DNA of 64,000 nt. It comes from Blasia pusilla (taxonomy: Eukaryota). Every line of letters starts with the position of its first letter. Within the stretch, counting starts at the first letter, position 1. Below are positions 3,001 to 64,000 of the stretch, piece after piece. The position numbers and the translations under genes were made by a program. Location: assembly GCA_050084515.1 (NCBI GenBank), contig CM114271.1:31930001-31994000 (forward strand), given 5' to 3'. Under the pieces are notes generated by a model. The model made no database searches. It saw only the letters and a program-made list of their open reading frames with translations, and was not told where the DNA came from.

Positions 3001-3015
3001 CCTCGATGTACGTAG
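1..3015 (+). pseudogene. Ty3/gypsy pol (RT - RNase H - integrase) with C-terminal PHD finger, frameshifted
   Basis: ORFs 240-662 (RT: DYRPIN, FSTLDL, PFGLKNA, YIDDIL), 644-1309 (RNase H), 1325-2334 (integrase HHCC and core), 2344-3015 ending CMLC..LVCDGCSRGWHMMCL..WVCPRC (C4HC3 PHD). Stops and frameshifts lie between the ORFs. Confidence 0.92.
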
Positions 3016-3190
3016 GAGAGGTAGATGACTTGATCTTTGGATGATATGGATTACAGATGTGTGACTAACGATGGGGCAACCTAGTACCCGGCCTTCTGAT
3101 TCGTGCACCCAAGAAGGTGTATAACATGTAGTAGATGTATAGGGCTACCTGGGAGTTAGAGGGACCTAACCGCCAGTTAGAGGGGCGAGT

Positions 3191-11917: not shown

Positions 11918-12060
11918 AGTGGTATCAGAGCTTATCCTTGGTGAGCGAGAACTTGGGGTTGTGGGATCAGCCGGACGCTTGGGAAATTTCAAGGTAGCGG
12001 CTAGACTCGGACGCTCGAGGAGGGACGCAAGAAACGAGGAGGAGATCTGAGTGAGTTGGC

Positions 12061-41077: not shown

Positions 41078-41465
41078 CTGCCGCATGAAGTTTCCCCATT
41101 GTCTCATACATACAGTCCACCAACTCAACCAAGAGCACAACTCTTTGTACTTCCCCTCAATCGCATGCTTCCTCCACCACCCATGAAGTTCTTCTTGGCA
41201 TTCCATGGCCTGCTTCAAGGTTTTGCTGTCCTTGCAGCGTTGGAGTAGAGTGACATGCTCTGTCCTCTTATTCTCCTTGATGCAAGATTTGGTGTACCAG
41301 GTCACAGACTGTTGCCAATGGAAAGAATCCGACCTTTCCCTCTCCGGTTGAACCTCTCCACCCCAGAACACTTCCCAGATAGCAATCCACCCTGGTTGTG
41401 CATTGTCGGCCATGAACCCATAAATTTCCGGAGGTGGCCTTTTGTTTTCCTTCACCACGTCCAAT

Positions 41466-44400
41466 GGTAAATGGTAAATGGTAAATAGATCAAGCCCGTG
41501 GGACCCAAAGGGTCAAAAGGCTGAAAAACACATTACAAGTCATTCATTGACTGACCCTGAAAAAGATCCTTAAGACCTTCTCCTAGCTACAGCCTAGAGC
41601 ACTTGAGCGATGAATTATGAAATTCCCAATAATACCACCTAAATCATAAGGCACAAGCTGTAGTAAAGAATAGAAATTCTCCACATCTATTTTATGAGCT
41701 AGTCTTATTTCTCCATACCTTGGACATGTAACAAACACATGCTCTTCATCCTCAATATTTTCTCCGTCACATAACCTACAAATTCGTTCACTTCTATCAA
41801 TTTTAAACCATCGTCCTTCCTCAATTCCTAGCCTATGAGACCCAGTTCTATGACGTGCGATAATATGTCGTAAGAACGTGGAGATCCCCGCAAGTAGATA
41901 TCCTTGTTCACAATATACAAGCATAGGATTAACATGAAGTTGATAAAACTCCATTTTGGTGCCCGCACTGCTCCAAATGATGTTGAGAGATTGCTTCTGT
42001 AGATGCTCACGGAGGGCCATCGGTTTCAAGTCCCAATCGCGTTCTGCGACATTCCACTTTGAAGACCAAGTCACCACATCCGCCATCCACCCTATGGAAC
42101 GTGTGGCTTGCAAAGCTTGATGAGGGAGGCGAGAAACATCAAGAGATCTCACCCTTGCGATGTAAGTGATGGTCAAGTAAAGAGCTTCAGCTTCTAGAGG
42201 AAGAAAACCTGTTTCCGCAAGAAGAATAGCATACGGAGTTTGGTTTCTTACACCCAATTCTTCTTGTAGAAAGATCTTTTGCACTCTTTCCACGCGCTCC
42301 CAACCTGTCTTCTTACAACTAGGGCCCCAAACTTGGGTCCCATATGAGACCACCGGCAACACTAAGCTCCTAAATAAGAATTTCCTTAGACTCCAAGACA
42401 CAAGATGAGCTCTTCTACACCGGTTTAAAAATGAATATAGAGTTTTGTAACCAGCTTCTACTCTCTTTTGGACGCAAAGTGCCCAACTATAGTCATGAGA
42501 GAAATCGATGCCTAGATATTTGTAACTCTTCACTTGTTCTAATTGTAGACCTTTGTAAAAGAACGAGAACTTGGATCTAGTACCCACTATAATGACTTTA
42601 GACTTGTCCATATTAACCTCCATCTGATTCTGGGTACAAAACCTTGCCAAAGTGTCGAGGTGCTTTTGTAAACTAATGCCATCACGTGCTAGTAATATGA
42701 TATCATCTGCATACAATAGAGCTTTGATGACAAAGTCCCCAAGCTTGACCCCTTCACTATCACATTCCTCCAGCCACTTTTCGATATCATCTATGAAAAC
42801 TCCAAAAAGTGTAGGGGAGAGAGGGCAACCTTAAATGACTCCAATGGTGCTCAAGATCTCTTGAGTTTGTGAACCTTTGATCTTGGCCCGAACGGAATGG
42901 TATAACGTGGCCACGGCTGCTAGGAGATTTTGTGGAACTCCAATGGCTTGCAGCCTTTCCCATAAGAGCTTGCGAGGTACAGTATCAAAAGCTTTCTTGA
43001 AATCGATGAAGCCGCAAAACAAAGCTTTTCCATTGCCCTTAGATTTCTCCCATAAAACACGCAAGGCCAAGATATGATCGATGGTGTTGTATGTTGACGA
43101 AAACCAGCTTGGACCAAGTGCTCTCTTTTGGAAAGACTGTCCATGTGCTCAACCGACTCCACCAATTTCCCAAACAACTTGGCAAAAACACTACCCACCA
43201 TGATAGTGCGATAGTTTGTTACCAAGTCCTTCCTTCCTGATTTGTGAATAGGACAATCTCCGTGAGCGACGACCAGGTTGAAGGAAAACCATAGATAGCA
43301 AAGATCACCCAATAATTTGGTGAGGATCGGTCCAATACAATCTCCTCCCCACTTGAAAAGTTCAATAGAAAGACCATCCAAATCCTCACATTTACCATTG
43401 GCCAATCTTCTTAGTTGAGTCATCACCTCTCCTTGAGAGAATAAGCAGGTATTCCTTCACAACGTGGCATAGACGTAGCATCGGGAAGAAATAGAGCTTT
43501 TGCAGCAAAAGATATCAAAGACTTGGGATCAAGAATAGGTTTTGAAGACCGTACTACTAACCGTCTCCAAAATGATTTGGGGTCCTCATGCACTCCCTTG
43601 TCAAGGACTCTTGTTTCGCCACAAGAAAGCTCGTTTCTTAGATTTCACCAAGTATTTGTAAAGGCTCGTCATAATAAGCCGACTTGGGATATCCAAAGAT
43701 TTATCATTTGCTCGTGCCCTTGCTTGCTTGCATTTGAGTCAAACCACCCATTACAAGGCAGACCTCCTAGCACTTCTATCCCGGTGGCGCAAAAAAGAAC
43801 TTAGATGCATTGTTTTTGAGCAATTCCGTTAGTTGCATACTTGCCGTGTTTGGATCAGGGCTCCATACAATGCGAGTCAAGTGTTCTTGTAAATGTAGCA
43901 TATAAAGATCTTTTTACCAGGATCTAAGCTTAAACTTGGGAGAAGCTAAAATAGATTGACATGTCGAGAGAGGAATTTCCTTTTGATGGTGAGGAGAGAG
44001 TAAACAAGAGAGGTGCATGATCCGATTCAGTGAGGTTCTAGAATATCAAATGTAGAGATAAGAGAGCTATCGTGGCGAGGACAGAAGATAATCGATGGTG
44101 CTAGCGCCTGAGAGAGGAGAAACACGTATTGGAGTGAGAGTTGGGAAAATGAGAGGTTCCATTAAGAACTTTCAAATTACAAGTGGCTCCAAAGGTTAAA
44201 AAATACTCTGTCAAAGGATTTGTAGAAAGATCTAAAGAGATTCTAGACCATAAACCATCCTCATATTCTTCGAGAAGAGGAGAAATCAAGGAATCACTGA
44301 ATTGGGTAAATTAAGCAGTACGTGTGCGAGCATTGAAATCTCCAACTAGAAAGACTTCACCTTTGCTTTGATATTTGAGAACATCCCCAATAAGTCGATG

Positions 44401-46145
44401 GAACGGTTGACTTTGATTGTGAGTGCGTGTTGAGTAGATAGGCATGGAGAGTGGTGCAAAATAACAAACTGCCAAATAACAATAAGATCCCCCAACCAAA
44501 CCAAGACGTAGCCAATGATATTGACCCCGATATCTTGATCTTCTAGATGAATGAGAGGTAGAAATTGAGACCTGATGAAAGTAGCAATACCACCATAACC
44601 CCTTCCTGCCCGTTGCCTTATCTGATTCCATGTCGATCCTACCAAAGTAAACCCTTGCATGTCTGCAATAGTATTGCTCTCATGTTCCCAAGTCTCCACA
44701 ATATTAATAATATCCGCCATCTCCCAAATTGGTAGAGCACTCACATACTTTGTTGTTGAAAGGCCTCGTATATTCCACATCAACACTCTCAGCTTCTTGG
44801 ATTGCTAGGTTGATAACTCTCTTTTTCTCTGGGTAATAATTGCTCGACCATCACGTAGATAAGCAATAAAACCTGCTTCTTGAGCCTCTTTGACCTTTGC
44901 AAGCTCCTTTCTCCTAGCTTCGACTTGTAGAGGTGTGAGATCAGGATCCAACCATATCCTCCGTCCTTTGAGAATGGCCTTGTTAGCCATGGCAGTATCA
45001 CGTTGAGTTTGATCAACAAACTTGACTAGAATGGCACGAGGTTGTGTGCCCGTTTTCCCAACTAAAAGCTTGAGCCAAGTCCGGGTTATGAACATGAAGT
45101 GTATCAACCAAGAACTTGGTGACAACACTCTTCACCTCTTCGCTCTCTTTTTGTAAACCCGAGATTCTCACATTCTTTCTACGGGCAAATTGGTTTTCTT
45201 TTTCTATCTCTTGCTCTTGTGAGAAAGAGATATGAGCAACTTTGTAGCCTCAAGATAAGATTTCATTTTCACTTCTAAAGTTTCAACAACCTCATGCAAT
45301 CCTGAACTATTGGGAGTAGTCACCAAGGATGATGCCTTCTCTTGAACATCCGCAAGATTTGGAAAGATCCAAAGATCACACTAGAACTATCTTTCAACAC
45401 TTTCTTGAACCTCTTGCGTTGCCTTCAACTCTCGGATTTGAATATGTGCATGGTTTAATTGAGAAGTTTGTACCTTGAATTCTTGTCGAAGCTCTTTAAC
45501 TTCATGCAAGACGACTTGCACTAGATTCAAGATTTCGTCTTGAGTGGTCATCCTGTAGTCGACTTCACTGCATCCCAGAAAGTATAATTGAATCTCCAAC
45601 ACCACACAACTTCTGCTCTAGAAGTTGGTTGTACTTGAAATTTCTAGGATCAAGACGTTTCTAGACATTCTACGTGGAGTCCAAATCTCAGCTTCATATG
45701 ACACTCCACCTCAAAGTTATGGCCTCGGCAAGATTCAGATCTGAAATGCTCAAATCTAGAAGTGCAGAAACTCAAATCTCTCACAACTTCGTGTGTATAA
45801 CTCGGTTGTGCTTAGAAATTTGAGGGCTAGGGCGCCTCTTTATACTCCACGTCACCTCCAAATCTCAGCTTCATATGACACTCCACCTCAAAGTAATAGC
45901 CTCGGAAATATTCCGATCTGAAATGCTAAAATCTAGAAGTGCGGAAACTCAAATCTCTCACAACTTCGTGTTTATAACTCGGTTGTGCTTGCAAATCTGA
46001 GGGCTAGGGCGCCTTTTTATATTCCCCGTCCGCTCCAAATCTCAGATTCATATGACACTCCACCTCAAAGTTATGGCCTCAGAAAGATTCAGATCTGAAA
46101 TGCTCAAATCTAGAAGTGCAGAAACTCAAATCTCTCACAACTTCG
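41466..46145 (-). mobile_element. LINE family A, copy A2, inserted in the transposase gene
   Basis: Collinear with A1. (TTTACCA)n tail at 41466. About 2.7 monomers at 45670-46145. Removal with a 2-bp AT duplication restores the frame MCRLLL-LDVVKEN. Confidence 0.92.
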
Positions 46146-47984
46146 ATAAGAGTAACCGGCACATCTTCAAACTGCCAACGTCTTCTGCCTTTACTTCACA
46201 GAGACATATAGTTTTGAGTCCCTTCTCCACATGGTCATAAACGTGAGCACCCATCCTCAACCATCCGTTCACCACTCTGCAGCAAATATCAAAGCTTACC
46301 CAGCTCCCGTAAAGATCTTCCCCTTCCCTCATTCGATCTATAAGATCAAGGCCACTCGACGGACCTGTGGTTGACATTTTGAAGACATAGGCCCTAGATC
46401 CCTTGCCTCCTTGGCCCATGAACTGCCATCTCTGAATGAATGGAAATCTGGAGTTGGCCTTGATTCTGGCAATGGCATCCATTTATTTGTCTTTCCATCC
46501 GAACTCGTATTTGACGCAAACAAATTCGAAGCATTCAGGATCAGCGAGAAATGCGAGATTTTCCCAGAGTTGTTTCTCCTCAACCGCCGTGATCTCGCCT
46601 TGTCTAGGGATTCCAAGCAATTGTTCACAAATTTGTGATGCCGTTGTGAGCTTGATCACTCCGGGCTTTGAACCCGGAGAGTTTCTGTAGACCTCGGCTA
46701 CTTTCTTCGCCACATCCTCCTTGATGTGTCTTTGAATTGCATCGGTCACAGGATGAGTGTGGGAGCCAACATGAACTGCCAGCCTTGTATACTCTGACGT
46801 GGAGCCGAAGTCGTGGACAATGAAAAATATGTATGCATGACACGCTCCAACACAGAAGGGCGATGCCTGACAATGAGGACATTGATGGCCTCCCGGCGGT
46901 ATGGTGGCACCGACCTCGTATGGAGTTTCTGCATTCTTGGGAGGGAATTGGGACGTATTGACTCGCCCGTTGCGCTCTAGATACGGGCATGCTGGACTTC
47001 TACACTCCAAGGCTCCCACGCATTGGCGGCGGGAGACAATCCAAGGACCATCTGGAATGGAAGCACTAGTCCGTTGAAGCCTGCACCATCGATGACAATC
47101 AAACTTTCTGTCCATACCCTTCAGGCGTCCTCCATCCTTCTTTTGAGCAGGAGCAGCAAGTGGAGGCAACTCAAAAATGCAATTACCATCGTACGTGGGC
47201 GGCAGCTCGTCGACAAGAATGTGCTTGAACATTTTCAAGGCCAGAGACGAAAGCAAACTATTGCCTGATACTCGCAAGAGGAACGAGTAGGCGGACAGAG
47301 GGCCCAATTGGTGTCCGACAAATCCACTGAGGTTGATAACATCCGGAATCTCTTCAGGAAGAACAACATTATTACGAGCGTGCGAAGTTGGAGTCGAAGC
47401 CGGATCTGCAAAGCTTGGAGTTGTAAACGTAGAGCTCGGAGCACTAGGAAATTCTAGACCGTCTACTTGGGAAACAAAAGAATTCAGGGGCAGGCCGTAA
47501 ACTATGTATTGACCATTTGCTAGAGGTAGGAGATTCCATACTTTACGGTCTGAGGTCACTGGCTGGACTGTCTCACCTATTATGTCTTCCGTACCGTCCA
47601 CCCTAACATCTTTGGATACAAAGATGGTTCCAATTTGGAGAAGAAATCGAACAGACAGAAAATTTTCATCCACTGCTATGAAAGACTCACGAGCTTGGGG
47701 TCGAATGATTTCTGATTGAGGAAGGGCCGCCAGATGACTGCCACAAGTGAGTTTAACATAATTATCCATTCCAAGAAGATTCCAACGGGAGGACACTGAG
47801 AATGAGAATGAGAATTTTTAATTTATAGTGAATAGGAAAATAGATACTTCTGACAAATTTTTACTAACAAGATGAATTCGGTGGGTGACATTGTTTGACA
47901 CAATGGATCCAATTCTGTAACACATTCAATTCTGTTGCAATATGTTACCGGATTTGGGAAGCAGAGGGTTGTGAATCACACTTG

Positions 47985-48665
47985 GAACCCGTCGGAGTCC
48001 TGGTAACTCCAAAATTACCCGAAGCTAACCGAAGCCTGCAACCCGTCGGCTTCGGACGGGTTGCACTCTTCTGCCAAACATTGTCGAAGTGAGCAACCCG
48101 TCGCTCTCCGACGAGTTGCTCGGATACCGCTGCTTCTTGCCCGAAGATGCCGGAGGCGTGCAAACCGCCGTCTGTTCGAGCGAGTTCGCGGGTGCCTCAC
48201 CTATTTGCCCAAAGACGGCGCGGCGTGCAACGTCGCCCTCTCCAACGGGTTGCGCAAGGGCCTCGCCTTGTGGTGTTTACATGAAGTGTGCAGCCAGCCG
48301 GACTCCGACGACTTGCACGGGAAGCCCGCGTTCTTAACCCTTGACGAGGGAAGCGTGCAACCCAACGGTCTCCGACGGATTTCTTGGGTACGTCCCGTTC
48401 CCGTCCCAAACACTGCGGAGGCGCGCAACATGTCGGTCTCCGACGGGTTGCGCGAGTACCTCGCGTTCTTTTCCGAAGACGATGGAGGCGCTCAACCCGT
48501 CGGTCTCCGACGGGTTGCTCGCGCACGTGGCGACGTACCCAGGATGGCGGAGGCGCGCAACCTGTCGGACTCTGACGGGTTGCCATTTTTCACCTCCGGA
48601 ATTCCGTAACCTCCGGCACGTCGCCGTCGAAAGGACGACGAGACCCAACGGTCAGCCCAACGGCT
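47985..48665. repeat. GC-rich array of ~11 palindrome copies (~55-68-bp period) between the two divergent genes
   Basis: Examples: GCAACCCGTCGGCTTCGGACGGGTTGC (~48038), GCAACCCGTCGCTCTCCGACGAGTTGC (~48093), CAACCCGTCGGTCTCCGACGGGTTG (~48493). Confidence 0.85.
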
Positions 48666-48680: not shown

Positions 48681-50265
48681 GGGCAGAAATCGCTCATTTC
48701 CGGTTTCTCATTTCGCGATCTTCATTCCTCACTCTCCCGCGCAGCAGCTGATCATATACGAAGGGGCGTTTCACACAGCGACACATCGCGAGTCGATAGG
48801 AGGGAACGAGAGCGAGACGGTTCGACCGAACGACAACGAGACGGTGCGACTGAACGATCACAAGACGATTCGAGCTACCCATCAAGGCGATTCGAGCTCC
48901 CCATCTCGACATCAGCAAGGCGACTGATCAAGGGATTCGTTGTGGACATAGGTGGAGGCATTTCCGGAAAAAATGATGAGGAAAAAATAACAAGCCAACA
49001 AGTGTGGGAGCTTCATTCCGAAGTCCATTAGGACTCCTACGTCAGCATCTCCTGGGCCTCGTTCGGCGAATGAAATTAGGCAGCACGAAATCGAGGAGCG
49101 GGAAAGGGAAGCGGAGATGCACCACCAAGTGCTTCTTGCGAGACGTGTTCAAGAGGCGCTCGATAAACAGAACGCAGAGGCTGAGACGTCGCAGGCCTTG
49201 AAGAAAAGGATTGCCGACGAAAAGAGAGAAAAGAAGCGTCTGGACGCGTCGGTGAGGAGGGCAGAATTGGCTAAAGCGAGGAGGGAAAAAGCGATAGCCA
49301 TTGAGGATAGCCCTGCCCGTCCAACCGAAAGTGTTGAGATGTGGGAAATGTCCCCCATGAAGTCCAGGGACACAATCAACATAGTGGAAACGCCATAAGT
49401 TGAAATCGATGACGACGAGGTCATGAGGACCGCTAACGTGGACATGGTGGACATGGCCAAAGAAGCCGGAGAGCGGTCATTCCCGACTCCAAGCCGGGCG
49501 GAGGACATCGACGAGTTCCCAGTCGATTTGCCAACTTCTGTCTCAGACAAGTTAGCTGGTCAAGAAACCGACCCCATTTTCGAGCGGGTAAGAGAGGATA
49601 TGGATTTTTTGAATTATGTGAATTGCAATTCATTGGGAATTCAGTGTAGCTTATTCATCTTGTCCCGGTTCTGACTGGTGGTAAAGCAGATGGCACTCAT
49701 GGAGGGCCACAACGCCCCGAGGATTCCACTCTGCCGATTGCGGACAATGGAATACGTCCACGAAATTCAGTCCAACGAGGACATCGTGAAGCTTAAACAA
49801 TCGGCGGCGACAGCATCCTACATCGATAGCTTTCCTCCCTTCTATGTTCAGCCTTACGACGAGCATCGAACCCAAGCTCTGGTTACGGAGAAGGACTTGG
49901 AAAAGCTCGACACATTCTGGAGGATGCGAGACCAGGATTTCAGAAGGCAAGTTGAGGGCACGGAATTCAGCTAGATGAGGAATCTGCATTTCTTCATCTG
50001 GGATGGAAATCACAGGTTCATGACGTGGACCAAGTTTGCGGAGGAGCGGCCCAACTCATTGGAGGCACATTTCTGCGTGAAGGCAGTGGTCCTTCACCCA
50101 TTCCCTCATCACATGGCGACGGTGGAGATGGCAATGTATGCCATGAACACGTGAGTATCTTTAACACTTACGCAACTCGTCGGGACGGTTGTTGGGATGC
50201 TTTAACACTTACGCAACTCGTCGGACTCCAACAGTTGCTCGATTGATGAATGGGTAAGGTTTTTT

Positions 50266-50279
50266 TTTAGGGTTTAGGG
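50266..50279 (+). repeat. Two plant telomeric repeats (TTTAGGG)2 at an insertion junction
   Basis: TTTAGGGTTTAGGG read directly. Confidence 0.6.
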
Positions 50280-50515
50280 CGAGAAACATCTCTTGATGTT
50301 TCTCGCCTCCCTCATCAAGCTTTGCGAGCCACACGTTCCATAGGGTGGATGGCGGATGTGGTGACTTGGTCTTCAAAGTGGAATGTGGCGGAATGCGATT
50401 GGGACTTGAAACCGATGGCCCTCCGTGAGCATCTATAGAAGCAATCTCTCAACATCATTTGGAGCAGTCCGGGCACCAAAATGGAGTTTTATCAACTTCA
50501 TGTTAATCCTATGCT
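50278..50515 (+). mobile_element. Internal LINE A fragment starting with a snap-back hairpin
   Basis: Matches 57297-57525. It begins GGCGAGAAACATC-TCTT-GATGTTTCTCGCC. Confidence 0.85.
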
Positions 50516-50539
50516 TGACACGAAGTTGTGAGAGATTTA

Positions 50540-51746
50540 AACGGATTTCAAACGGATTGCAACACCGCAGACACAAGGTGTTGGGATCCGACGGGTTGCA
50601 TGCACATATGCAACCCGTTGGAGCTTGACGGGTTGAATTTTTGTTAAACTAAATTCTTTGAATAAGAGAACTTACCTGGACTTAACTCGTCGCCGATCGG
50701 AGTGGATACCTGATCGGAGTGGATATCCATGATTGTGTTGTCCTCCACTTCAGCGACCTCTTCATGCAGTGAAGCTTGAAGAGCTCATCTTTGCTCCCTC
50801 CAATGAGGACCAAGAAACAACCCCTGTCACTTAGATACGCGTCCGCAAAAGAAAACAACAACGCGATCTTGTCGTACGAAAGCGGGACATTCCAGTCTGG
50901 GACAGTGTCAGACGGATTGTTGTCCCACAAGAAAAACCTAGAAGGCAAATCCGCAATGAGGAGGTCCACCGCCACCTCCTCAACCACCCCATGCACCGTC
51001 TAGGGGGCGTGCCCGTTTCGAAGGAGTTTTCGTCCCAACACGGTCAATTTGTCGATGGCAAGTGTCGACTCCTGAGAACTGAAACTCAGCAGCTCATCGA
51101 CAAGATGAGTCAAGTGAACAAGGACATTTGTCCTGGTGGTTATTTTCCTATATCTGCCCAATGATGATGGAGTGTATTCCACATCCTTATCTCCTCCCTC
51201 GAACGAACCACGCGCCTCCCGCTTCCGCTTCTCCCAAGTCTGCTGTCGTGTTGGACGAGGACCTGGTCCTGCCCTCTTGCCATGCTTGCAAAACGATTCT
51301 GCCTCTCGCCTTGAGAACTCAGCCTCTTTTCTGGAAGACTCCGCCTCGTAATTCCTCGATCCCCTCGCCTTCCTCAAACCCGCTGTGGATTTGTCTTTGG
51401 CGGTGACGACCTTGCCCACCAACTCCTCTGTCTCAAGGGCTTGCTCCTCTGCATCTCCTTTGAAAAAATCTTCAGGTTGCACAAAGTTCGGAATGTTGTC
51501 CCTACCTACGACCACTGCATCATACACCACACGTAGATTTTTTTTTGTAATGTCCTCTGGGTCGTTGAAGTCCAACCAGATTGGACAATTGTTAACCTCC
51601 TAGTCGGACATGCCTTGTCCCATCTCCATGTCGTACATAGAGAATGCCTCTCCATCAAGCGGAGAAGCCCACAATCTACAGGCTATGGGTAATTTTTGCC
51701 AAGTTCTTGCATTCTTACAATTGATGAGGTACATGTACCCCATGTT
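50540..51746 (-). pseudogene. Inverted fragment of a diverged paralog of the ParB/MTase-like gene (3' part of exon 2 plus intron start)
   Basis: ORFs 51000-51575 and 50682-50996 align with residues encoded at about 60110-61207 (DFNDPEDIT, VDLLIADLPS, FADAYLSDRG). It has the same GTAAG donor position, and the palindromes continue in its intron. Confidence 0.88.
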
Positions 51747-54565
51747 CAAGCACAACCGAGTTATACACACGAAGTTGTGAGAGATTTGAGTTTCTGCGTT
51801 TCTAGATTTGAGCATTTCAGATCTGAATCTTGCCGAGGCCATAACTTTGAGGTGGAGTGTCATATGAAGCTGAGATTTGGAGGCAACGTGAAGTATAAAC
51901 TGGCGCCCTAGCTCTCAGATTTGCAAGCACAACCGAGTTATACACACGAAGTTGTGAGAAATTTGAGTTTCTACACTTCTAGATTTGAGCATTTCAGATC
52001 TGAATCTTGCCGAGGCCATAACTTTGAGGTGGAGTGTCATATGATGCTGAGATTTGGAGGCCACGTGGAGTATAAATTGGCGCCTTAGCCCTCAGATTTG
52101 CAAGCAGAACCGAGTTATACACTCGAAGTTGTGAGAGATTTGAGTTTCTGCGTTTCTAGATTTGAGCATTTCAGATCTGAATCTTGCCGAGGCCATAACT
52201 TTGAGGTGGAATGTCATATGAAGCTGAGATTTGGAGGCGACGTTAAGTATAAACTGGTGCCCTAGCCCTCAGATTTGCAAGCAGAACCGAGTTATACACT
52301 CGAAGTTGTGAGAGATTTGAGTTTCAAATCTGAATCTTGCCGAGGCCACTTCTAGATTTGAGCATTTCAAATCTGAATCTTGCCGAGGCCATAACTTTGA
52401 GGTGGAGTGTCATATGACGCTGAGATTTGGAGGCCACGTGGAGTATAGAGAGGCGCCGTAGCCCTCAGATTTGCAAGCAGAACCAAGTTATACACTCGAA
52501 GTTGTGAGAGATTTGAGTTTCTGCGTTTCTAGATTTGAGCATTTCAGATCTGAATCTTGCCGAGGCCATAACTTTGAGGTGGAGTGTCATATGATGCTGA
52601 GATTTGGAGGCGACGTGGAGTATAAACTGGCGCCCTAGCCCTCAGATTTGAAAGCAGAACCGAGTTATACACTCGAAGTTGTGAGAGATTTGAGTTTCTG
52701 CGTTTCTAGATTTGAGCATTTCAGATGTGAATCTTGCCGAGGCCATAACTTTGAGGTGGAATGTCATATGATGCTAAGATTTGGAGGCAACGTGAAGTAT
52801 AAAGAGGCGCCCTAGCCCTTATATTTGCAAGCACAACCCAGTTATACACACGAAGTGGTGAAAAATTTGAGTTTCTGCATTCCTAGATTTGAGCATTTCA
52901 GATCTGAATCTTGCCGAGGCCATAACTTTGAGGTGGAGTGTCATATGATGCTGAGATTTGGAGGCAACGTGGAGTATAGAGAGGCGCCGTAGCCCTCATA
53001 TTTGCAAGCACAACCGAGTTACACACACGAAGTGGTGAGAGATTTGAGTTTCTGCGTTTCTAGATTTGAGCATTTCAGATCTGAATCTTGCCGAGGCCAT
53101 AACTTTGAGGTGGAGTGTCATATGAAGCTGAGATTTGGAGGCAACATGAAGTATAAGCTGGTGCCCTAGCCCTCAGATTTGCAAGCACAACCAAGTTATA
53201 GACACGAAGTTGTGAGAAATTTGAGTTTCTACACTTCTAGATTTGAGCATTTCAGATCTGAATCTTGCCGAGGCCATAACTTTGAGGTGGAGTGTCATAT
53301 GACGCTGAGATTTGGAGGCAACGTGGAGTATAGAGAGGCGCCGTAGCCCTCATATTTGCAAGCACAACCGATTTACACACACGAAGTGGTGAGAGATTTG
53401 AGTTTCTGCGTTTCTAGATTTGAGCATTTTAGATCTGAATCTTGCCGAGGCCATAACTTTGAGGTGGAGTGTCATATGAAGCTAAGATTTGGAGGCCACG
53501 TGTAGTATAAACTGGCGCCCTAGCCCTCAGATTTGCAAGCAGAACCGAGTTATACACTCGAAGTTGTGAGAAATTTGAGTTTCTACACTTCTAGATTTGA
53601 GCATTTCAGATCTGAATCTTGCGGAGGCCATAACTTTGAGGTGGAGTGTCATATGACGCTGAGATTTGGAGGCAACGTGGAGTATAGAGAGGCGCCATAG
53701 CGTTGTTATTTGCAAGCACAACCGAGTTACACACACGAAGTGGTGAGAGATTTGAGTTTCTGCGTTTCTAGATTTGAGCATTTTAGATCTGAATCTTGCC
53801 GAGGCCATAACTTTGAGGTGGAGTGTCATATGAAGCTAAGATTTGGAGGCCACGTGTAGTATAAACTGGCCCTAGCCCTCAGATTTGCAAGCAGAACCGA
53901 GTTATACACTCGAAGTTGTGAGAAATTTGAGTTTCTACACTTCTAGATTTGAGCATTTCAGGATCTGAATCTTATGGAGGCCATAACTTTGAGGTGGAGT
54001 GTCATATGACGCTGAGATTTGGAGGCAACGTGGAGTATAGAGAGGCGCCATAGCGTTGTTATTTGCAAGCACAACCGAGTTACACACACGAAGTGGTGAG
54101 AGATTTGAGTTTCTGCGTTTCTAGATTTGAGCATTTTAGATCTGAATCTTGCCGAGGCCATAACTTTGAGGTGGAGTGTCATATGAAGCTGAGATTTGGA
54201 GGCCACGTGTAGTATAAACTGGTGCCCTAGCCCTCAGATTTGCAAGCAGAACCGAGTTATACACTCGAAGTTGTGAGAAATTTGAGTTTCAACACTTCTA
54301 GATTTGAGCATTTCAGATCTGAATCTTGCGGAGGCCATAACTTTGAGGTGGAGTGTCATATGACGCTGAGATTTGGAGGCAACGTGGAGTATAGAGAGGC
54401 GCCATAGCCCTGTTATTTGCAAGCAGAACCGAGTTATACACACGAAGTTGTGAGAGATTTGAGTTTCTGCGTTTGTAGATTTGAGCATTTCACATGTGAA
54501 TCTTGCCGAGGCCATAACTTTGAGGTGGAGTGTCATATGAATCTGAGATTTGGAGGCAACGTGGA
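51747..54565 (+). repeat. Tandem array of ~16 x 177-bp monomers (5' end of LINE A3)
   Basis: ATAACTTTGAGG occurs at 51841, 52018 and 52195 (period 177). There is a short internal duplication near 52325-52350. Confidence 0.95.
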
Positions 54566-57500
54566 ATGTCTAGAGGCGTCTTAATCCTAGAAATTTCAAG
54601 TACAACCAACTTCTAGAGCAGAAGTTGTGTGGTGTTGGAGATTCAATTATACTTTCTGGGATGCAGTGAAGTCGACTACAAGATGACCACTCGAGACGAA
54701 ATCTTGAATCTAGTGCAAGTGGTCTTGCATGAAGTGAAAAGGCTTCGACAAGAATTCAATGTACAAACTTCTCAATTAAACCATGCACATATTCAAATCC
54801 GAGAGTTGAAGGCAACGCAAGAGGTTCTGAAGAAAGTGTTGAAAGATAGTTCTAGTGAGATGCTCAAATCTCTCACAACTTCGTCTGTATAACTCGGTTG
54901 TGCTTGCAAATCTGAGGGCTAGGGCGCCTCTTTATACTCCACGTCGCCTCCAAATCTCAGATTCATATGACACTCCACCTCAAAGTTATGGCCTCGGAAA
55001 GATTCAGATCTGAAATGCTCAAATCTAGAAGTGCAGAAACTCAAATCTCTCACAACTTCGTGTGTATAACTCAATTGTGCTTGCAAAGAGAAGGCATCAT
55101 CCTTGGTGACTTCTTCCAATAGTTCAGGATTGCATGAGGTTGTTGAAACTTTAGAAGTGAAAATGAAATCTTATGCTGAAGCTACAAAGGTTGCTCATAT
55201 CTCTTTCTGTCAAGAGCAAGAGATAGAAAAAGAAAACCAATTTGCCCGTAGAAAGAATGTGAGAATCTCAGGTTTACCGGAAACAGAGAGCGAAGAGGTG
55301 AAGAGTGTTGTCACCAAGTTCTTGGTTGATACACTTCATGTTCATAACCCGGACTTGGCTCAAGCTTTTCGCATTGGGAAAACGGGCACACAACCTCGTG
55401 CCATTCTAGTCAAGTTTGTTGATCAAACTCAACGTGATCTTGCCATGGCTAACAAGGCCATTCTCAAGGGCGGAGGATATGGTTGGATCGATCTCACACC
55501 TCTACAAGTTGAAGCTAGGAGAAAGGAGCTTGCAAAGGTCAAAGAGGCTCAAGAAGCGAGGTTTTATTGCTTATCTACGTGGTCGAGCAATTGTTACCGA
55601 GAGAAAAAGAGAGTTATCAACCTAGCAATCCAAGAAGAGAGTCTTGATGTGGAATATACGAGGCCTTTCAACAACAAAGTATGTGAGTGCTCTACCAATT
55701 TGGGAGATGGCGAGATATTATCAATATTGTGGAGACTTGGGAACATGAGAGCAATACTATTGCGAGAGATGCAAGGGTTTACTTTGGTAGGATCGACATG
55801 GAATCAAAGAAGGCAACGGGCGGGGAAGGGGTTATGGCGGTATTGCTACTTTCATCAGGTCTCAATTTCTACCTCTCATTCATCTAGAAGATCAAGATAT
55901 CGGGGGTCAATATCATTGGCTACGTCTTGGTTTCGTTGGGGGATCTTATTATTATTTGGCGGTTTGTTATTTTGCACCACTCTCCATGCCTATCTACTCA
56001 ACACGCACTCACAATCGAAGTCAACCGTTCCATCGACTTATTGGGGATGTTCTCATAAATCAAAGCAAAGGTGAAGTCTTTCTAGTTGGAGATTTCAATG
56101 CTCGACATTAACGTCTTGCTCAATTTACCCAATTCAGTGATTCCTTGATTTCTCCTCTTCTCAAGAATATGAGGATGGTTTATGGTCTAGAATCTCTTGA
56201 GATCTTTCTACAAATCCTTTGTGAGTATTTTTAACCTTTGGAGCCACTTGTAATTTGAAAGTTCTTAATGGAACCTCTCATTTTCCCAACTCTCACCCAA
56301 TACGTGTTTCTCCTTTATTGGCGCTAGCACCATCGATTATCTTACATCCTCTCGCCCGTGATAGCTCTCTTATCTCTACATTTGATATTCTAGAACCTCA
56401 CTGAATCGGATCATGCACCTCTCTTGTTTACTCTCTCTTTGTCAAAGGAAATTCCTCTCTCGACATGTCAATCTATTTTAGCTTCTCCCAAGTTTCGCTT
56501 AGATCCTGGTAAAAAAGATCTTTATATGCTACATTTACAAGAACACTTGACTCGCATTGTATGGAGCCCTGATCCAAACACGGCAAGTATGCAACTAACG
56601 GAATTGCTCAAAAACAATGCATCTAAGTTCTTTTCGCGCCACTGGGATAGAAGTCCTAGGAGGCTGCCTTGTAATGGGTGGTTTGACTCTGAATGCAAGC
56701 AAGCAAGGGCACGAGCAGTTGATAAATCTTTGGATATCCCAAGTCGGCTTATTATGACGAGCCTTTACAAATACTTGGTGAAATCTAAGAAACGAGCTTT
56801 CTTGCGGCGAAAACAAGAGTCCTTGACAAGGGAGCTGCATGAGGACCCAAGTCTAAAGTCATTATAGTGGGTACTAGATCCAAGTTCTCGTTCTTTTACA
56901 AAGTTCTACAATTAGAACAAGTGAAGAGTTACAAATATCTAGGCATCGATTTCTCTCATGATTATAGTTGGGCACTTTGCATGCAAAAGAGAGTAGAAGC
57001 TGGTTACAAAGCTCTATATTCATTTTTAAACCGGTGTAGAAGAGCTCATCTTGTGTCTTGGAGTCTTAGGAAATTCTTATTTAGGAGCTTAGTGTTGCCG
57101 GTGGTCTTATATGGGACCCAAGTTTAGGTAAGAAGACATGTTGGGAGCGCGTGGAAAGAATGCAAAAGATCTTTCTACAAGAAGAATTGGGTGTAAGAAA
57201 CCAAACTCCGTATGCTATTCTTCTTGCGGAAACAGGTTTTCTTCCTCTAGAAGCAGAAGCTCTTTACTTGACCATCACTTACATCGCAAGGGTGAGATCT
57301 CTTGATGTTTCTCGCCTCCCTCATCAAGCTTTGCGAGCCACACGTTTCATAAGGTGGATGGCGGATGTGGTGACTTGGTCTTCAAAGTGGAATGTGGCAG
57401 AACGCGATTGGGACTTGAAACCGATGGCCCTCCGTGAGCATCTACAGAAGCAATCTCTCAACATCATTTGGAGCAGTGCGGGCACCAAAATAAAGTTTTA

Positions 57501-57975
57501 TCAACTTCATGTTAATCCTATGCTTGTATATTGTGAACAAGGATACCTACTTGAGGGGATCTCCACGTTCTTACGACATATTATCGCACGTCATAGAACT
57601 GGGTCTCATAGGCTAGGAATTGAGGAAGGACGATGGTTTAAAATTGATAGAAGTGAACGAATTTGTAGGTTATGTGCCGGAGAAAATATTGAAGATGAAG
57701 AGCATGTGTTTGTTACATGTCCAAGGTATGGAGAAATAAGACTAGCTCATAAAATAGATGTGGAGAATTTCTATTCTTTACTACAGCTAGTGCCTTATGA
57801 TTTAGGTTGTTATATTAGGGATGTCATCATTCATCGCTCAAGTGCTCTATGCTATAGCTAGGAGAAGGTCTTAAGGATCTTTTTCAGGGTCAGTGAATGA
57901 ATGACTTGTAATGTGTTTTTCAGCCTTTTGACCCTTTGGGTCCCACGGGCTTGATCTATTTACCATTTACCATTT
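51747..57975 (+). mobile_element. LINE family A, copy A3 (internal deletion of RT core at ~56850)
   Basis: ORF1 starts at ATG 54683. APE region about 55650-56420. The sequence jumps from HEDP to KSKVIIVG near 56850. ORF 57151-57861, then a (TTTACCA)n tail. Confidence 0.92.
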
Positions 57976-58428
57976 ATATTGTGAACAAGGATACCTACTT
58001 GTAGGGATCTCCACGTTCTTACGACATATTATCGCACGTCATAGAACTGGGTCACATAGGCTAGGAATTGAGGAAGGATGATGGTTTCAAATTGATAGAA
58101 ATGAACGAATTTGTAGGTTATGTGCCGGAGAAAATATTGAAGATGAAGAGCATGTGTTTGTTACATGTCCAAGGTATGAAGAAATTAGACTAGCTCATAA
58201 AATAGATGTGGAGAATTTCTATTCTTTACTACAGCTAGTGCCTTATGATTTAGGTTGTTATCTTAGGACGTCATCATTCATCGCTCAAGTGCTCTAGGCT
58301 GTAGCTTGGAGAAGGTCTTAAGGATCTTTTTCAGGGTCAGTGAATGAATGACTTGTAATGTGTTTTTCAGCCTTTTGACCCTTTGGGTCCCACGGGCTTG
58401 ATCTATTTACCATTTACCATTTACCATT
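57976..58428 (+). mobile_element. 5'-truncated LINE A 3' end in tandem with A3
   Basis: Near-duplicate of 57527-57975 with diagnostic differences, and it has its own tail. Confidence 0.9.
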
Positions 58429-58430
58429 TT

Positions 58431-59165
58431 ACTTACGCAACTCGTCGGGACGGTTGTTGGGATGCTTTAACACTTACGCAACTCGTTGGACTCCGACCAA
58501 TTGCTCGATTGATGAATGGATAAGGTTTTTTTTTGCCAAAAGCAACTCGTCGGACTCCGACCAGTTGCTCGACTCGACGCTTTTTTGGATGTTTTTTTAA
58601 GAATGCAACTCGTCGAACTCCGACGAGTTGTTCGATTGACCACACATTTAATTAGTTTTTGGCCGAAAGCAAACCGTCAGAGTCCGACGGGTTGCTCGAC
58701 TCGCCGCCTTATCATGATGTTTTTTGAAGAATGCAACTCGTCGGACTCCGACGAGTTGTTCGACTGACTGCAGGTTTAGAATGTTTTTTGCCCAAAGCAA
58801 CCCGTCGGAGTCCGACGGGTTGCTTGCCTCGAAACTGTTTTTGGCCGAAATAAACCCGTCAGAGTCCGACGGGTTGCATTTGGAAGTTGGTTCCCCAAAT
58901 TTCACGTCAAATTGCAAGTTTCCATTCAATTGCGCAACCTGTCGGACTCCGACGGGTTGCTATGTTCACGTTAGTATGTTCAGTTGCACAACCCGTCAGA
59001 GTCCGACGGGTTGAAACCAGGCATTAGCAAATCTGAATGCAATCGGTCGGACTCCAACGGGTTGCATCATTTAGCTCGTTGCTAGAATCCGACCTTGAGC
59101 TGTGACGACCCGTCGGAGTCCGACGGGTTGCAGGAACCCATGTAATTTCCTGACGGGTTGAGTTT
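58431..59165. repeat. Intron 1 (distal part) with ~13 palindrome copies, often ~62-65 bp apart
   Basis: Example: perfect GCAACCCGTCGGAGTCCGACGGGTTGC at about 58797-58823. Confidence 0.88.
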
Positions 59166-61319
59166 GGATGTGCAAGATTGTATCGGAGGGGAATGTCACC
59201 CACCACTAGATCCAGGACTGCGATTGGGTGAGGAAGGTGCTTACGACGCACCCGGGAGAGTACAGGGGGTTCTTGGGCGATGCCCTTGTCAATCAGATGC
59301 TTGCAAAGGGTGCTCAAATTAAAAAGAAAACTTGGGCAAATAAGTTTATTTCCCAAGATGCAGCCATAACCATCCTTTTCTGGTCGAAGATACAGGCCGC
59401 GAAGAAGAGCGCTGCACTAGAGCTGGAGCGGAGGGAGAAGGTATCTGCGTCTGAGCGCGGGAAATTCATCCAAGTTGCAGTATCTACAACAACAAAATAC
59501 ACGGCGAGCAAGATGCAGCGATACATCAGCATTCTCAACCCCGAACTTGGTCCGGAGTTCTACAAGGAGCTGAAGGCGATTATCAAGCGCCAACGGAAAA
59601 GGGATGAAGATCCGCATGGTCGGATTGGGGAGAAAGTGTCCCTAGATCGAGTGCATCGGTTTGCGTTGTCCGGCATAAGCGAGTTTAAGAGGATCCGACT
59701 GATGAAAATCAGTCTCGAGGGCACAGAGGCCCAGAAGAGGGCGGCACACCATCCTCCGGGTGTGTCCGATCCAGTGATCATCTCCCACTGGCTACGCGAA
59801 TGGTCGTTCTGGGACGCGTTGCGGGTTATCGGGAAGTCCGTGCTGGACGGTCTGCAAGCGGAGCTCAGAAGATTAGAGCCCATCCCGGATGAAGCAAACC
59901 TTGAAAGTTCTGGAGATTTCGAGGTTTGGCTCGACGACATCCGGGGCAAGCCAACCAAAAACCTAGGATTCAAGACAATGTTCAAGGTTTGCGTCCTCCC
60001 TCAGGCAGAGCTTGACGAAGAGGTAGAGGGGAACAAACGGGATCAAGCGAAGAAGAAGCGAGATCTACAAGAGCAGACGGCCAATTCTGTTCGACTAAAA
60101 GCTGCCCAACGGATGGTCTTCAGGTACCTCGTCCAGTGTAAGAATGCAGGTACGTGGGGAAAATTACCGGCAGCCTTGAAATTGTGGGCTTCGCTGTCGG
60201 ATGCAGAGACATTCTCCATGTATGACATGGAGATGGGGCAGCACATGTCCGATTGGGAGGTGGAGAATTTCCCCATTTGGCTCGACTTCAACGACCCTGA
60301 AGACATCACCGATAAGGATTTACAAGTGCTTCATGATGCAGTGGCCTCAAGACAAGACGACATCCCCAATTTCGTGCAGACTGAAGACTTCTTCGAAGGA
60401 GATGCAGAAGAGCAGGCCTACGAGACAGCTGAGTTGGCTTCCAAGGTCCGCACAGCCAAAGACAAATCCACAACGGGTCTCAAAGGCAAGGCGAGAGGAG
60501 GGAAAAATTCAGAGGCCGAGTCTTCCCAAAGAGAGGCTCAAGATTCAAGGCCAGAAGCGGAATCGTCCGGGCGAGCGGGGAGAGAGGGTCGGACCAGGTC
60601 CTCGACGAAAAAAACCCCACAAGAGTCTGAGGTCATAGAGACCCCGACAAGCCGTCCGCAGACTCGGGAGAAGCGGAAGCGAGAGGTGCCAGGGTTGTCC
60701 CAAGGAGAATACAGTCCATCATCCTTGGGAAGACACAGACAAAGTACGACCCGGACAAGTGTCCTCCTTCAGTTCACTCCTTTACTGGATGAGCTGAAGA
60801 GGTTCAGTTCTCAAGCGTCTACACCAACCATCGATAAATTGACAACGCTGGGACGGAAGCTCCAACAAAACGGGCACGCTGCCTGGACGGTGAATGGAGT
60901 GGTCGAAGAGGTTGCGGTGGATCTCTTGATCACTGATCTGCCCTCGGGGTTGCGACTTTGGGGCGAGAATCCGTCGGACGACGTACCTGAGTGGAATGTG
61001 CCGCTCTCTTATGACCAGATTGCACTATTGTTCTCCTTTGCAGACGCCTATCTGAGTGACAGGGGCTGCTTCTTGGTGTTGACTGGAGGGAGCGAGGACG
61101 AGCTCTTCAACCTCCAGTGCATCAAGAGGTCGCTAAAGTGGAGGACGGCGCAATCGTGGATCATCAAAAACGAGTACCCACTCCGATCCGCGACGAGTCA
61201 GATTCGGGTAAGGCTCAATTCCTGTACTATAATCTCAATTATATTTTAATGATGTGTATAATGAGTGTTCATCTCCGTTGAGTGAGTATAATGAGTGTCA
61301 ATCTCCGTTTTTTTGTCCG

Positions 61320-61700
61320 TGAGCAACCCGTCGGAAGGCGACGGGTTGCTGGCTTAGAGTAGCCCATGCTCGGCTGAGAGCAACCTGTCGGTTTCCGACG
61401 GGTTGCATCTTTCCCACATACACAGGGAAAACCGTGGTGTACCTGCAACCCGTCGGAACCCGACGGGTTGCAGTTGCTTTTGGTTTTTCCCTGTGTTTCC
61501 GGAAAGCTGCAACCCGTCTGATAGCGACGGGTTGCTCTCAGGCGAGCATGGGCTGCTCTAGGCCAGCAACCCGTCGCCTTCCGACGGGTTGCTCAATTTC
61601 ACTAACATAGCCCGACCGGGTTGTTTTAGTCCCTGACCAACCCGTCGGAAGGCGACGGGTTGGTCCGGGACAAAACAACCCGTCGGACTCCGACAGGTTG
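61320..61700. repeat. Intron 2 with 7 palindromes, five of them forming a ~275-bp inverted repeat (61320-61595)
   Basis: The left arm GAGCAACCCGTCGGAAGGCGACGGGTTGCTGGC..ACACAGGGAAAACC is mirrored by GGTTTTTCCCTGTGT..GCCAGCAACCCGTCGCCTTCCGACGGGTTGCTC. Confidence 0.88.
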
Positions 61701-63097
61701 ATCCAAAGTCAGTAATTGAAAATGTTCTCAAGCCGACTTCTTTAGTTGCTGACATTGTTTCCAACGTGCTGATTTACAGATGGACCACTCCTACGTGTAC
61801 TGCTTCGTTCGGCCCGAGCACAATTTCCAGGTGTTCAAGATCCAGGATCCTGTGGATCCATGCTCAGATGGGTACAGCTTAGATAGTTTGTACAATTCCC
61901 CCCCGGGAATTTACATGCAAGACAGTACCCCACTTCTCGGAGGAAGGGAAAAGTCGCGAGCCCTGATGCAAACGCTCATCGAGCTCTGCTCAAGGGGGGT
62001 GACTTGGTGTTTGACTTAGTGGGACTTTCAGGGGCAAGTATCAAAGGCGCCTGGCAGAGTGGCAGGAACATTCTCTGCCTCGAGGGAAGGCAGGAACTAT
62101 TTGACCTTTGCAAGGAGGCAAAGGCAGAATACGAAAGGCTCGTTGGGGCGTACAACTCTCCACCGAAGCCGAGAGCTCCGGTTCCAGACCCACCCTTGGT
62201 AGTGACTCCATCGTCACTTCCAACGATTCCAAAAATCGGGAGGGCAAGGCCGAAAGTAATTTTGCAAGAGCTCTCAGACGATGACGAGTGAGTTCAAAGA
62301 ACTCAACGACCCAGCTTGACTGCAGCGTTTGGAGTAGGGAGTTTTTTGATGATGAGGCAAAAGATTTCATAGAATAGATCAAATGTACAGTTCCGAGCTT
62401 TTTTCAGATGATATAAAGCATAAGATTTTTTCGAACGATGGTGGTGCTTGTAAAAGTTTGCTAAACATTTTTTGTCTTTTCGAATGTGATCGTCTATGTA
62501 CTCCGCGGACTTCTATTTTGCAACCCGTCGGATTTCTCCTACTTGCAACTTTTCACTTTTTGACCACAACACCTTTTTACCACTTCCAGGCAACCTGTCG
62601 GATTCCGACAGGTTGCCTGATCGGACTCTTTCCCTGTTGGTCCAACTTAAGAGGCAGTCTGGCAGGCTTCTTCCCTTGGCACCTTCCCCACAACTCGTAA
62701 AGGCAGGCGTAGGCTTCTTTTCTTCTCTCAGACGTGTTGGATTCCTACTACCTGTGCGATTGCCATAATGGTATTACCGGGACGGAGCACATATTGATAC
62801 TGGATGGGTGTCACATTGCAGAGCGTACAAGGTATACTGCCGAGGAAGGCGGTGGGACTCAAATCAGGTTACATGGGACCGTTATGGTGTACCTAGTGGG
62901 GGGGGGGCCAAGGCTCTCGAATTTGCCAACTTTTTTCGATCCCCGTCTACAATCGGCCAGAGGAGCCACTTGTATCCCAGGACATTCCTTTGGTACTATC
63001 ACCGAGGAGAGTTAGGAGTAAATTTGTAGATGACGAGGCTGAAGAAATCCTAGACTAGGTCAAATGTACATTTCCGAGGTTCCTTCGGAGGAAATGA

Positions 63098-64000
63098 TAA
63101 ATGGTAAATGGTAAATAGATCAAGCCCGTGGGACCCAAAGGGTCAAAAGGCTGAAAAACACATTACAAGTCATTCATTGACTGACCCTGAAAAAGATCCT
63201 TAAGACCTTCTCCTAGCTACAGCCTAGAGCACTTGAGCGATGAATGATGACATCCCTAATATAACAACCTAAATCATAAGGCACTAGCTGTAGTAAAGAA
63301 TAGAAATTCTCCACATCTATTTTATGAGCTAGTCTTATTTCTCCATACCTTGGACATGTAACAAACACATGCTCTTCATCCTCAATATTTTCTCCGTCAC
63401 ATAACCTACAAATTCGTTCACTTCTATCAATTTTAAACCATCGTCCTTCCTCAATTCCTAGCCTATGAGACCCAGTTCTATGACGTGCGATAATATGTCG
63501 TAAGAACGTGGAGATCCCCGCAAGTAGGTATCCTTGTTCACAATATACAAGCATAGGATTAACATGAAGTTGATAAAACTCCATTTTGGTGCCCGGACTG
63601 CTCCAAATGATGTTGAGAGATTGCTTCTGTAGATGCTCACGGAGGGCCATCGGTTTCAAGTCCCAATCGCGTTCTGCGACATTCCACTTTGAAGACCAAG
63701 TCACCACATCCGCCATCCACCCTATGGAACGTGTGGCTTGCAAAGCTTGATGAGGGAGGCGAGAAACATCAAGAGATCTCACCCTTGCGAGGTAAGTGAT
63801 GGTCAAGTAAAGAGCTTCAGCTTCTAGAGGAAGAAAACCTGTTTCCGCAAGAAGAATAGCATACGGAGTTTGGTTTCTTACACCCAATTCTTCTTGTAGA
63901 AAGATCTTTTGCACTCTTTCCACGCGCTCTCAACCTGTCTTCTTACAACTAGGGCCCCAAACTTGGGTCCCATATAAGACCACCGGCAACACTAAGCTCC
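63098..64000 (-). mobile_element. LINE family A, copy A4 (3' end; continues beyond window)
   Basis: ORF 63213-63923 is nearly identical to the A2 ORF2 C-terminus. It has the same 3' UTR and (TTTACCA)n tail. Confidence 0.93.

Follow-up and report, generated by a model that had tools for sequence, protein, structure and literature searches.

The 64,000-nucleotide stretch of Blasia pusilla DNA analysed here (assembly GCA_050084515.1, contig CM114271.1, positions 31,930,001 to 31,994,000, forward strand; hereafter, the window) contains at 48974-62291 a broken, intron-containing gene that joins a conserved N-terminal domain with an invariant-looking WDGNHR motif to a C-terminal domain of methyltransferase fold. 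The overall best explanation, held at a probability of roughly 60%, is that this is a decayed copy of an accessory gene riding on a cut-and-paste DNA transposon. Judging from the sequences recovered, the gene is a member of a large, fast-diverging and multi-copy family, known so far from Riccia, Blasia pusilla and a few other contigs. The intact protein is about 1200 amino acids (aa) long and consists of a disordered N-terminus, the WDGNHR domain of about 170 aa, a helical middle domain, a K/E-rich linker, and the methyltransferase fold.

A preliminary description of the window had read this region as a fusion of ParB/sulfiredoxin (Srx)-like and beta-class N4/N6 methyltransferase-like parts, spread over segments at 49-50 kb and 59-62 kb. 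The motifs on which it was based are indeed present, namely, FFIWDGNHR at 49990-50016 in the frame of 48991, VDLLITDLPSG at 60917-60949 within a 679-aa open reading frame (ORF; 59210-61249), and EKS..LMQTLIELCS from about 61948, after which GDLVFDLVGLSGASIKGAWQSGRNILCLE continues in another frame up to about 62085. Four plus-strand exons account for them. Exon 1 (48974-49587) encodes a charged, low-complexity N-terminal region; its start codon, the ATG at 48974, is a proposal, since the N-terminus is unconserved in the Riccia proteins and is of low complexity there too. Intron 1 (49588-49689; 102 nt, GTAAGA..CAG, phase 0) removes a TGA at 49672, and exon 2 (49690-50150) starts in alignment with a 'P(R/K)IPLCRL' block of the Riccia proteins and carries the conserved N-domain, with WDGNHR at 49999-50016 and a GTGAGT donor at 50151. 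After the disrupted intron 2 (50151-59176), which has expanded to 9 kb, exon 3 (59177-61207) encodes the helical middle domain, the K/E-rich linker and the first half of the methyltransferase-like domain, including a motif IV-like DLPS at 60935-60946. Intron 3 (61208-61779; 572 nt, GTAAGG..CAG, phase 0) holds seven units of a palindrome described below (61325-61699), and exon 4 (61780-62291) supplies the second half of the domain, with a motif X-like EKS..LMQTLIE and a motif I-like GDLVFDLVGLSGAS, an acidic tail and a TGA at 62289. The junction 61207/61780 reads as a clean phase-0 GT..AG intron. For the junction 50150/59177, the place, the GTGAGT and the AG are as anticipated, but phase 2 meets phase 0, one base off.

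That one eukaryotic gene spans both segments follows from tblastn with P0040, a 1207-aa protein of Riccia sorocarpa. Residues 174-321 align with 49717-50148 (E 2.6e-19) and residues 321-1045 with 59192-61180 (E 4.7e-32); since both segments meet at the same residue (321), they belong to one gene, and in P0040 they are contiguous, which removes the objection that the two segments might never adjoin in other copies. The window pieces also align over the entire C-terminal domain of the Riccia family. Chance ORFs and chance motif matches were rejected on the strength of these E-values and of the family alignment. A longer alternative 3' end is suggested by a GTGAGT at 62288-62293, which overlaps the exon 4 stop codon, and by a downstream frame similar to a C-terminal tail that only some Riccia members have: a candidate extra exon (62915-63058, plus strand; ..IPVY..FVDDEAEE), truncated by a long interspersed nuclear element (LINE) at 63093, has a weak match to the tail of P0049 (40% identity over 45 columns, E 0.041 in a 0.9-kb search space).

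The window copy is a dead, rearranged pseudogene without a function of its own. In-frame stops occur in exon 1 (TAA at 48988-48990 and 49396-49398), exon 2 (TAG at 49972-49974) and exon 3 (TAG at 59207-59209, where Riccia has W). One base has been lost in the G run at 61994-61999, between motif X and motif I, which shifts the frame, and the second frame break is the 50150/59177 junction, where the reading phases differ by one base. Given four stops, two one-base frame breaks and the expanded intron 2, the protein cannot be made from this copy. An alternative genetic code as the cause of the stops was ruled out, TAA and TAG both being present in addition to frameshifts.

Intron 2 owes its length to inserted material of about 8.2 kb, flanked by a 104-nt duplicate (50166-50268 and 58431-58534, 95% identity by self-blastn). 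Within it lie a LINE 3' fragment on the plus strand (50288-50517, 97% identical to 57297-57526), a diverged partial paralogue of exon 3 in inverted orientation (50671-51743, minus strand, 72% nucleotide identity to 60113-61212), and a full-length L1-like LINE (51744-58423, plus strand) with an array of 177-bp monomers at 51747-54565 and remnants of ORF1, endonuclease (EN) and reverse transcriptase (RT). This LINE, sister copies of which carry Exo_endo_phos and RVT_1 (Pfam), contains an internal 448-bp duplication in its 3' part (57527-57976 and 57975-58423). The paralogue fragment stops at the same exon/intron boundary as exon 3, with the GTAAGT donor kept, and has two TAG stops on its minus strand where the main copy has W (51000-51002 and 51600-51602). 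Wherever a stop can be aligned to a conserved residue (three cases), it is a TAG in place of tryptophan, i.e., a G-to-A transition. Such stops would fit deamination-type decay of a methylated repeat, of which three cases give no more than a hint.

An exhaustive phmmer search with the 679-aa ORF against 1.84 billion representatives (threshold E <= 1e-3) matched 37 proteins, 30 of which were looked up: 14 came from Riccia sorocarpa, one from R. fluitans, and 15 from Logan, ENA, JGI or SRC contigs, with no close prokaryotic relative among these 30. In word-indexed searches, R. sorocarpa accounted for 26 of 26 matches to the C-terminal domain and 49 of 52 to the N-domain; this kind of search yielded no match when run with the 679-aa ORF at near lengths, and no relative was found in metagenome scans with P0026 or with the window ORF. 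The R. sorocarpa members are annotated as hypothetical proteins, and no paper describing the gene family was found in the literature searched. Their models are spread over all eight contigs seen (5.4-56 Mb), and many are truncated. Models of the N-part and the C-part often have consecutive locus tags (e.g., R1sor_026403/026404 and 020454/020455); as many members are split into neighbouring models in this way, public annotation fragments the family.

Copies of the gene are abundant in the source organism as well. In one DNA run, 17,277 contig pieces match the 4.2 kb at 58900-63100 at 95% identity or more, which shows a large set of near-identical copies. Many dispersed and mostly degenerate copies are thus found, on the evidence of this abundance and of the truncated R. 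sorocarpa models, and these marks of a mobile, multi-copy sequence lend support to the earlier proposal that the gene travels on a transposon. Some observations from sequencing runs weigh on the other side. The summed word depth in the same DNA run, 1,000-14,000 in exon bins versus 46 in one intron bin, includes palindrome repeats and is not a copy number. In three RNA-seq runs with the same species label only 19, 30 and 24 reads were placed, and no spliced read is listed among them. Per run, 0, 4 and 0 of these reads reach at least 99% identity; nearly all are 95-99% identical and hence come from other copies. They sit on exons 3 and 4, some on both flanks of 61297-61719 and none within that interval. 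The reads fit weak transcription of sister copies, tell little about expression or the 61207/61780 junction, and prove nothing for the window locus.

A transposon setting is suggested by a second broken gene, which lies head-to-head with the first on the minus strand (38977-47817), with a 1.2-kb spacer between the two. Its 5' part (46147-47817) includes ORF A (P0112, 46483-47817), which has Cys/His clusters; an in-frame TAA stands at 46483 and the frame continues to the insertion point of a minus-strand LINE (41465-46146) that splits the gene. In the 3' part (38977-41464) the frame resumes at 41464 (FMADNAQ..AIWEVF..SFHW), followed by a palindrome array and by ORF B (38977-40050, minus strand) with a SWIM-type CxC..CxH. 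Together with a D..(C/S)xxH-like pattern that was read by eye, this layout suggests that the neighbour may be a DDE transposase of Mutator-like organization with a C-terminal SWIM finger. Literature pairing Zisupton with SWIM was found for fish only.

Linkage of the two genes extends to another genus. Residues 49-252 of P0112 are 30% identical to the first 200 residues of the Riccia protein P0037 (E 2e-19). P0037 fuses a homologue of ORF A to the middle domain of the family, and the rest of the family protein is encoded by the adjoining model with the consecutive locus tag, P0024, an arrangement indicating that the two genes are linked in Riccia too. The genes also share a 23-nt palindrome, AACCCGTCGGA-N-TCCGACGGGTT, which has 30 matches in the window versus 0 expected. 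All lie within 38772-62614, and there is no occurrence in 1-38,771 (about 60% of the window). Arrays of the palindrome occupy the intergenic spacer (48040-48581; 5 units, period of about 67) and introns of both genes, with 10 units in a tandem period of about 64 in intron 2 (58478-59129) and 6 units in the neighbour gene (40627-40932).

Several results count against a transposon here. Neither Pfam nor NCBIfam gives the neighbour gene a transposase match among their hidden Markov models (HMMs), and the best that ORF B attains is Pfam SWIM at E 0.025 and 14.6 bits, below the cut-off of 19.6; among PDB sequences the neighbour gene has no match. The two genes are on opposite strands in the window and on one strand in the Riccia chimera P0037. 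Neither terminal inverted repeats nor a target-site duplication could be identified; the right end is presumed to lie beyond the LINE at 63093 and outside the window, and the presumed flanks (38000-39100 and 62250-63150) have no convincing inverted match.

Some of these results would be expected if the gene belonged to a non-mobile, lineage-specific host family that expanded by segmental duplication, the transposase-like neighbour and the LINEs being the usual content of a repeat-rich region. The missing element ends and the missing transposase HMM match would both fit, as would a window full of unrelated retroelements. The introns are retained, which means that the copies arose at the DNA level. 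However, such a family would hardly be expected to appear on all eight Riccia contigs seen with many truncated models, to reach very many near-identical variants in a DNA run, to have ORF A-like sequence joined to a family member in Riccia too, or to share with its neighbour palindrome arrays that are absent from 1-38,771. Segmental duplication is therefore considered unlikely, and an accessory gene on a DNA transposon remains the preferred explanation.

What the accessory protein may do depends on its domains. The C-terminal domain is confirmed, at the level of structural modelling and profile comparison, as a beta-class, circularly permuted N6A/N4C amino-methyltransferase fold, with motif IV before motifs X and I as the preliminary description had it (in the window, DLPS at 60935, EKS..LIE at 61948 and GDLVFD at 61998). 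An AlphaFold2 model was made of the Riccia fragment P0041 with a 31-row alignment that included the window pieces; its mean predicted local distance difference test (pLDDT) score is 58.6, with 73-88 over residues 23-135. Prediction is poor in the second half, where pLDDT drops to 45-60, which tells against the assignment. Foldseek against the PDB returned 146 matches at E <= 1e-3, with CcrM as the best (E 1.3e-9) and M1.HpyAVI, MboIIA, M.BceJIV, RsrI, PvuII and the rotifer N4CMT among the other top matches. VIA-align placed MboIIA first (Z 14.1, root-mean-square deviation 3.7, 180 aligned residues; next 14.0 and 13.5), with Z >= 8 for 185 of 1000 chains and MT-A70 enzymes at Z 9-10. Searched against PDB sequences, the family profile aligned collinearly with M1.HpyAVI over two stretches (E 1.1e-4). 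The comparison with viral structures agrees with this result, a 494-aa phage protein named ParB/Sulfiredoxin standing at rank 15. PHROG DNA methyltransferase families were matched at 8.7e-7 and 1.2e-5. Pfam N6_N4_Mtase scored 23.7, 24.8 and 26.2 bits, and also 18.2 and 23.6 bits, on Riccia members (cut-off 26.7), and PF01555 is precomputed on 4 of 26 R. sorocarpa models. Ten window ORFs gave nothing significant against Pfam; the window pieces lack an N6_N4_Mtase match because the domain is split by an intron and a frameshift.

The canonical consensus of motif I in beta-class enzymes is of the D-P-F-x-G-S-G-T-T type. In this family the motif takes the form GDI(V/F)xD-(F/Y)xGG(W/C)G, present in 17 of the 18 Riccia rows that cover it and as GDLVFDLVGLSGAS in the window. 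The domain probably still binds S-adenosylmethionine. Motif IV, which reads TDLPSG in the window, is a different matter. Among the 25 informative rows of the 31-row alignment (five lack the region and one is misaligned), (D/N/S)PP(Y/F/W) occurs in none and D-[LMIV]-[PS]-[STKNE] in all; in the aligned members the catalytic motif is replaced by D-hydrophobic-P-x-G across the family. The earlier suggestion that the gene is a possible source of non-canonical DNA marks has this point and the pseudogene state of the window copy against it.

Part of the evidence would nonetheless be explained by a ParB-methyltransferase that was acquired horizontally, is active, and places 6mA or 4mC in the genome of the host. 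The beta-class fold is recovered by both Foldseek and VIA-align, motif I is conserved in the Riccia rows, 23 of 25 rows keep the D and one P of motif IV, and RNA from near-identical copies is found at a low level. Enzymes of bacterial type that make 4mC are, moreover, described as working in Marchantia sperm, in the accessible text of 10.1101/2021.02.12.428880, and in rotifers, in that of PMC8885841. Against this, the window copy carries its four stops and both frame breaks, the phmmer matches that were looked up include no identified prokaryotic protein, and identity to solved methyltransferases is 12-20%. The absence of PP(Y/F/W) from the 25 rows means that the base-stacking aromatic residue is missing. 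An active enzyme is accordingly regarded as improbable.

The ParB/Srx part of the preliminary description fared less well than the methyltransferase part. A DGxHR or GxxR-type motif typifies ParB/Srx proteins, and WDGNHR is nearly invariant in the family, with D, G and N in at least 90% of alignment rows. The motif and a language-model lead from Atlas stand in favour of a ParB-like domain, but there is neither a profile match nor a confident fold. With Pfam at E <= 10 on 32 members no ParB_N match was obtained, PHROGs and NCBIfam gave no ParB match, and the profiles A3 and A4 each produced three chance-level rows against PDB sequences. In the model of P0011 the N-domain has pLDDT <50 over residues 112-231 and 267-329. 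These results leave a ParB-like assignment unsupported. Phage P1 ParB itself has no match to PF02195. The ParB/Spo0J rows of VIA-align (Z 5.1 and 4.8) fall on the helical part and do not rise above noise, and a weak Pfam DUF1015 match (E 0.047) was obtained on a 59-aa window piece. The Atlas feature search was made with residues 172-345 of P0011, the homologue of 49690-50150 in the window. Among its named clusters, the top two (score 0.95) share 178 and 171 features with the query and have DUF3723 on 31% and 47% of their members, and a ParB_N cluster follows at rank 18 (0.92); these scores come without an E-value, are uncalibrated for protein parts, and serve as leads only. That the N-domain is related to DUF3723 rather than ParB, making the family a plant counterpart of a Starship cargo protein of fungi, is suggested by this ranking and is very improbable, as no Pfam DUF3723 match was found at E <= 10 on the 32 members, the Atlas scores are limited as stated, and no paper mentioning both DUF3723 and ParB was found. 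DUF3723 is described as conserved cargo of the giant Starship transposons of fungi in the accessible text of 10.1101/2021.12.13.472469.

The middle domain (residues 330-555 of P0011) is modelled as a helical bundle with pLDDT >90. Foldseek found no match to it in the PDB at E <= 1e-3, and the wide VIA-align search gave a best Z of 6.4, with Z >= 8 for none of 48,161 chains; the absence of a structural match does not show a new fold. Atlas returned only low-score rows for this domain, DUF6551 and DndB.

Apart from the two genes, the window is eukaryotic, repeat-rich DNA made up largely of nested retroelements. The LINE in intron 2 and the LINE in the neighbour gene belong to one family with four copies, at 4146-8704 (minus), 41465-46146 (minus), 51744-58423 (plus) and 63093-64000 (minus). 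Its 5' region consists of 177-bp monomers in an array of up to about 16 units, and its 3' end is a microsatellite of (ATGGTAA)n type instead of poly-A. LINE-type EN/RT frames of other families (Exo_endo_phos, RVT_1, zf-RVT) occur at 29335-32764 and 36352-38182, both on the plus strand. At 171-3015 (plus) there are remnants of a Ty3/gypsy-type pol (RT-RNase H and the zinc domain of an integrase), after which comes a PHD finger (Pfam E 5.8e-9); such a module is unusual at the C-terminus of an integrase. Two 300-nt direct repeats (10912-11211 and 17236-17535; 98% identical, 6324 nt apart) with an RT-RNase H between them (14467-14943) are probably the long terminal repeats of a young retrotransposon.

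Few transposons are equipped with accessory genes of their own that modify chromatin or DNA; among those described are the VANDAL anti-silencers and a cassette of red-algal Plavaka elements (accessible text of 10.1101/2025.02.11.637652). In the same text, giant Plavaka elements of the red alga Bostrychia share accessories with related Zisupton and Mutator elements: PAG2 combines a PF01555 N6-adenine methylase with SET, and PAG3 combines a ParB-like N-domain with a 2-oxoglutarate oxygenase. The ParB-like domain there is weakly detected (HHpred E 0.29), its gene adjoins tandem inverted-repeat arrays, and according to the authors' proposal the protein would bind the very transposon that encodes it and modify it. 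In the liverwort family, the N-domain might bind the palindrome arrays of its own element as ParB binds parS. Binding would bring the methyltransferase-like domain to the DNA of the element, which that domain would then mark or, as a pseudo-enzyme, only bind. It is possible, although doubtful, that liverwort DNA transposons carry in this manner a single accessory protein in which a parS-type recognition module and a re-tooled amino-methyltransferase fold are combined, and that this protein loads on the palindrome arrays of the element that encodes it, whose DNA it marks or shields. Such a protein would amount to an epigenetic device that the transposon directs at itself, akin to PAG2 and PAG3 in its logic and perhaps also by descent, with a middle domain whose fold would be unrepresented among solved structures.

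If the accessory-gene explanation is true, a fused ParB-like and methyltransferase-like accessory gene in a land-plant lineage, with candidate arrays in cis, would form a tractable system, and both the protein and its putative target, the 23-nt palindrome, are open to direct testing. The system would be relevant to the ways in which mobile elements escape host silencing or enlist it. Since this family lacks the catalytic motif, PF01555-like domains in liverworts should not all be taken as writers of 4mC or 6mA.

Among known systems, a comparably altered motif is found in METTL14, whose motif IV is degenerate and without the aromatic residue. Inactive MT-A70 partners of the METTL14/MTA9 type share a methyltransferase fold with the liverwort family (MT-A70 complexes at Z 9-10), but they form part of another clade and their structural scores are lower, and no evidence of a catalytic partner was obtained for the liverwort family. 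ParB-methyltransferase fusions of phages and plasmids, together with M.MboIIA, CcrM, M1.HpyAVI, M.RsrI and M.PvuII, have the same IV-X-I order and a fold at Z 12-14. In contrast to these phage and bacterial beta-class enzymes, to which identity is 12-20%, the liverwort family has no PP(Y/F/W) and no ParB_N HMM match, and its protein of about 1200 aa has a long linker, an extra helical domain and spliceosomal introns in its gene. A bacterial-type amino-methyltransferase fold in a eukaryote is also found in MpDN4MT1a/b of Marchantia and in the bdelloid N4CMT (8s9m), which superposes on the P0041 model at Z 12.1 (VIA-align). As far as the accessible text of 10.1101/2021.02.12.428880 describes them, MpDN4MT1a/b are two tandem, single-locus genes with TSPPY, whereas the liverwort family is high-copy, has no SPPY and contains other domains.

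The closest precedent is PAG2/PAG3, a likeness drawn from their descriptions, as given in the accessible text cited above. Shared with them are the DNA transposon setting (a probable one in the liverwort family), the PF01555-type fold, a ParB-like N-domain (by motif only in the liverwort family), adjacent tandem inverted-repeat arrays, and copies that are mostly degenerate and weakly transcribed. The liverwort family differs in that both modules are in one protein, in which no SET or oxygenase domain was detected, in the helical middle domain between the modules, in the D-hydrophobic-P-x-G motif, and in its liverwort-type host. What is new here is that the ingredients of the red-algal accessories recur in a different arrangement and with a non-canonical motif IV.

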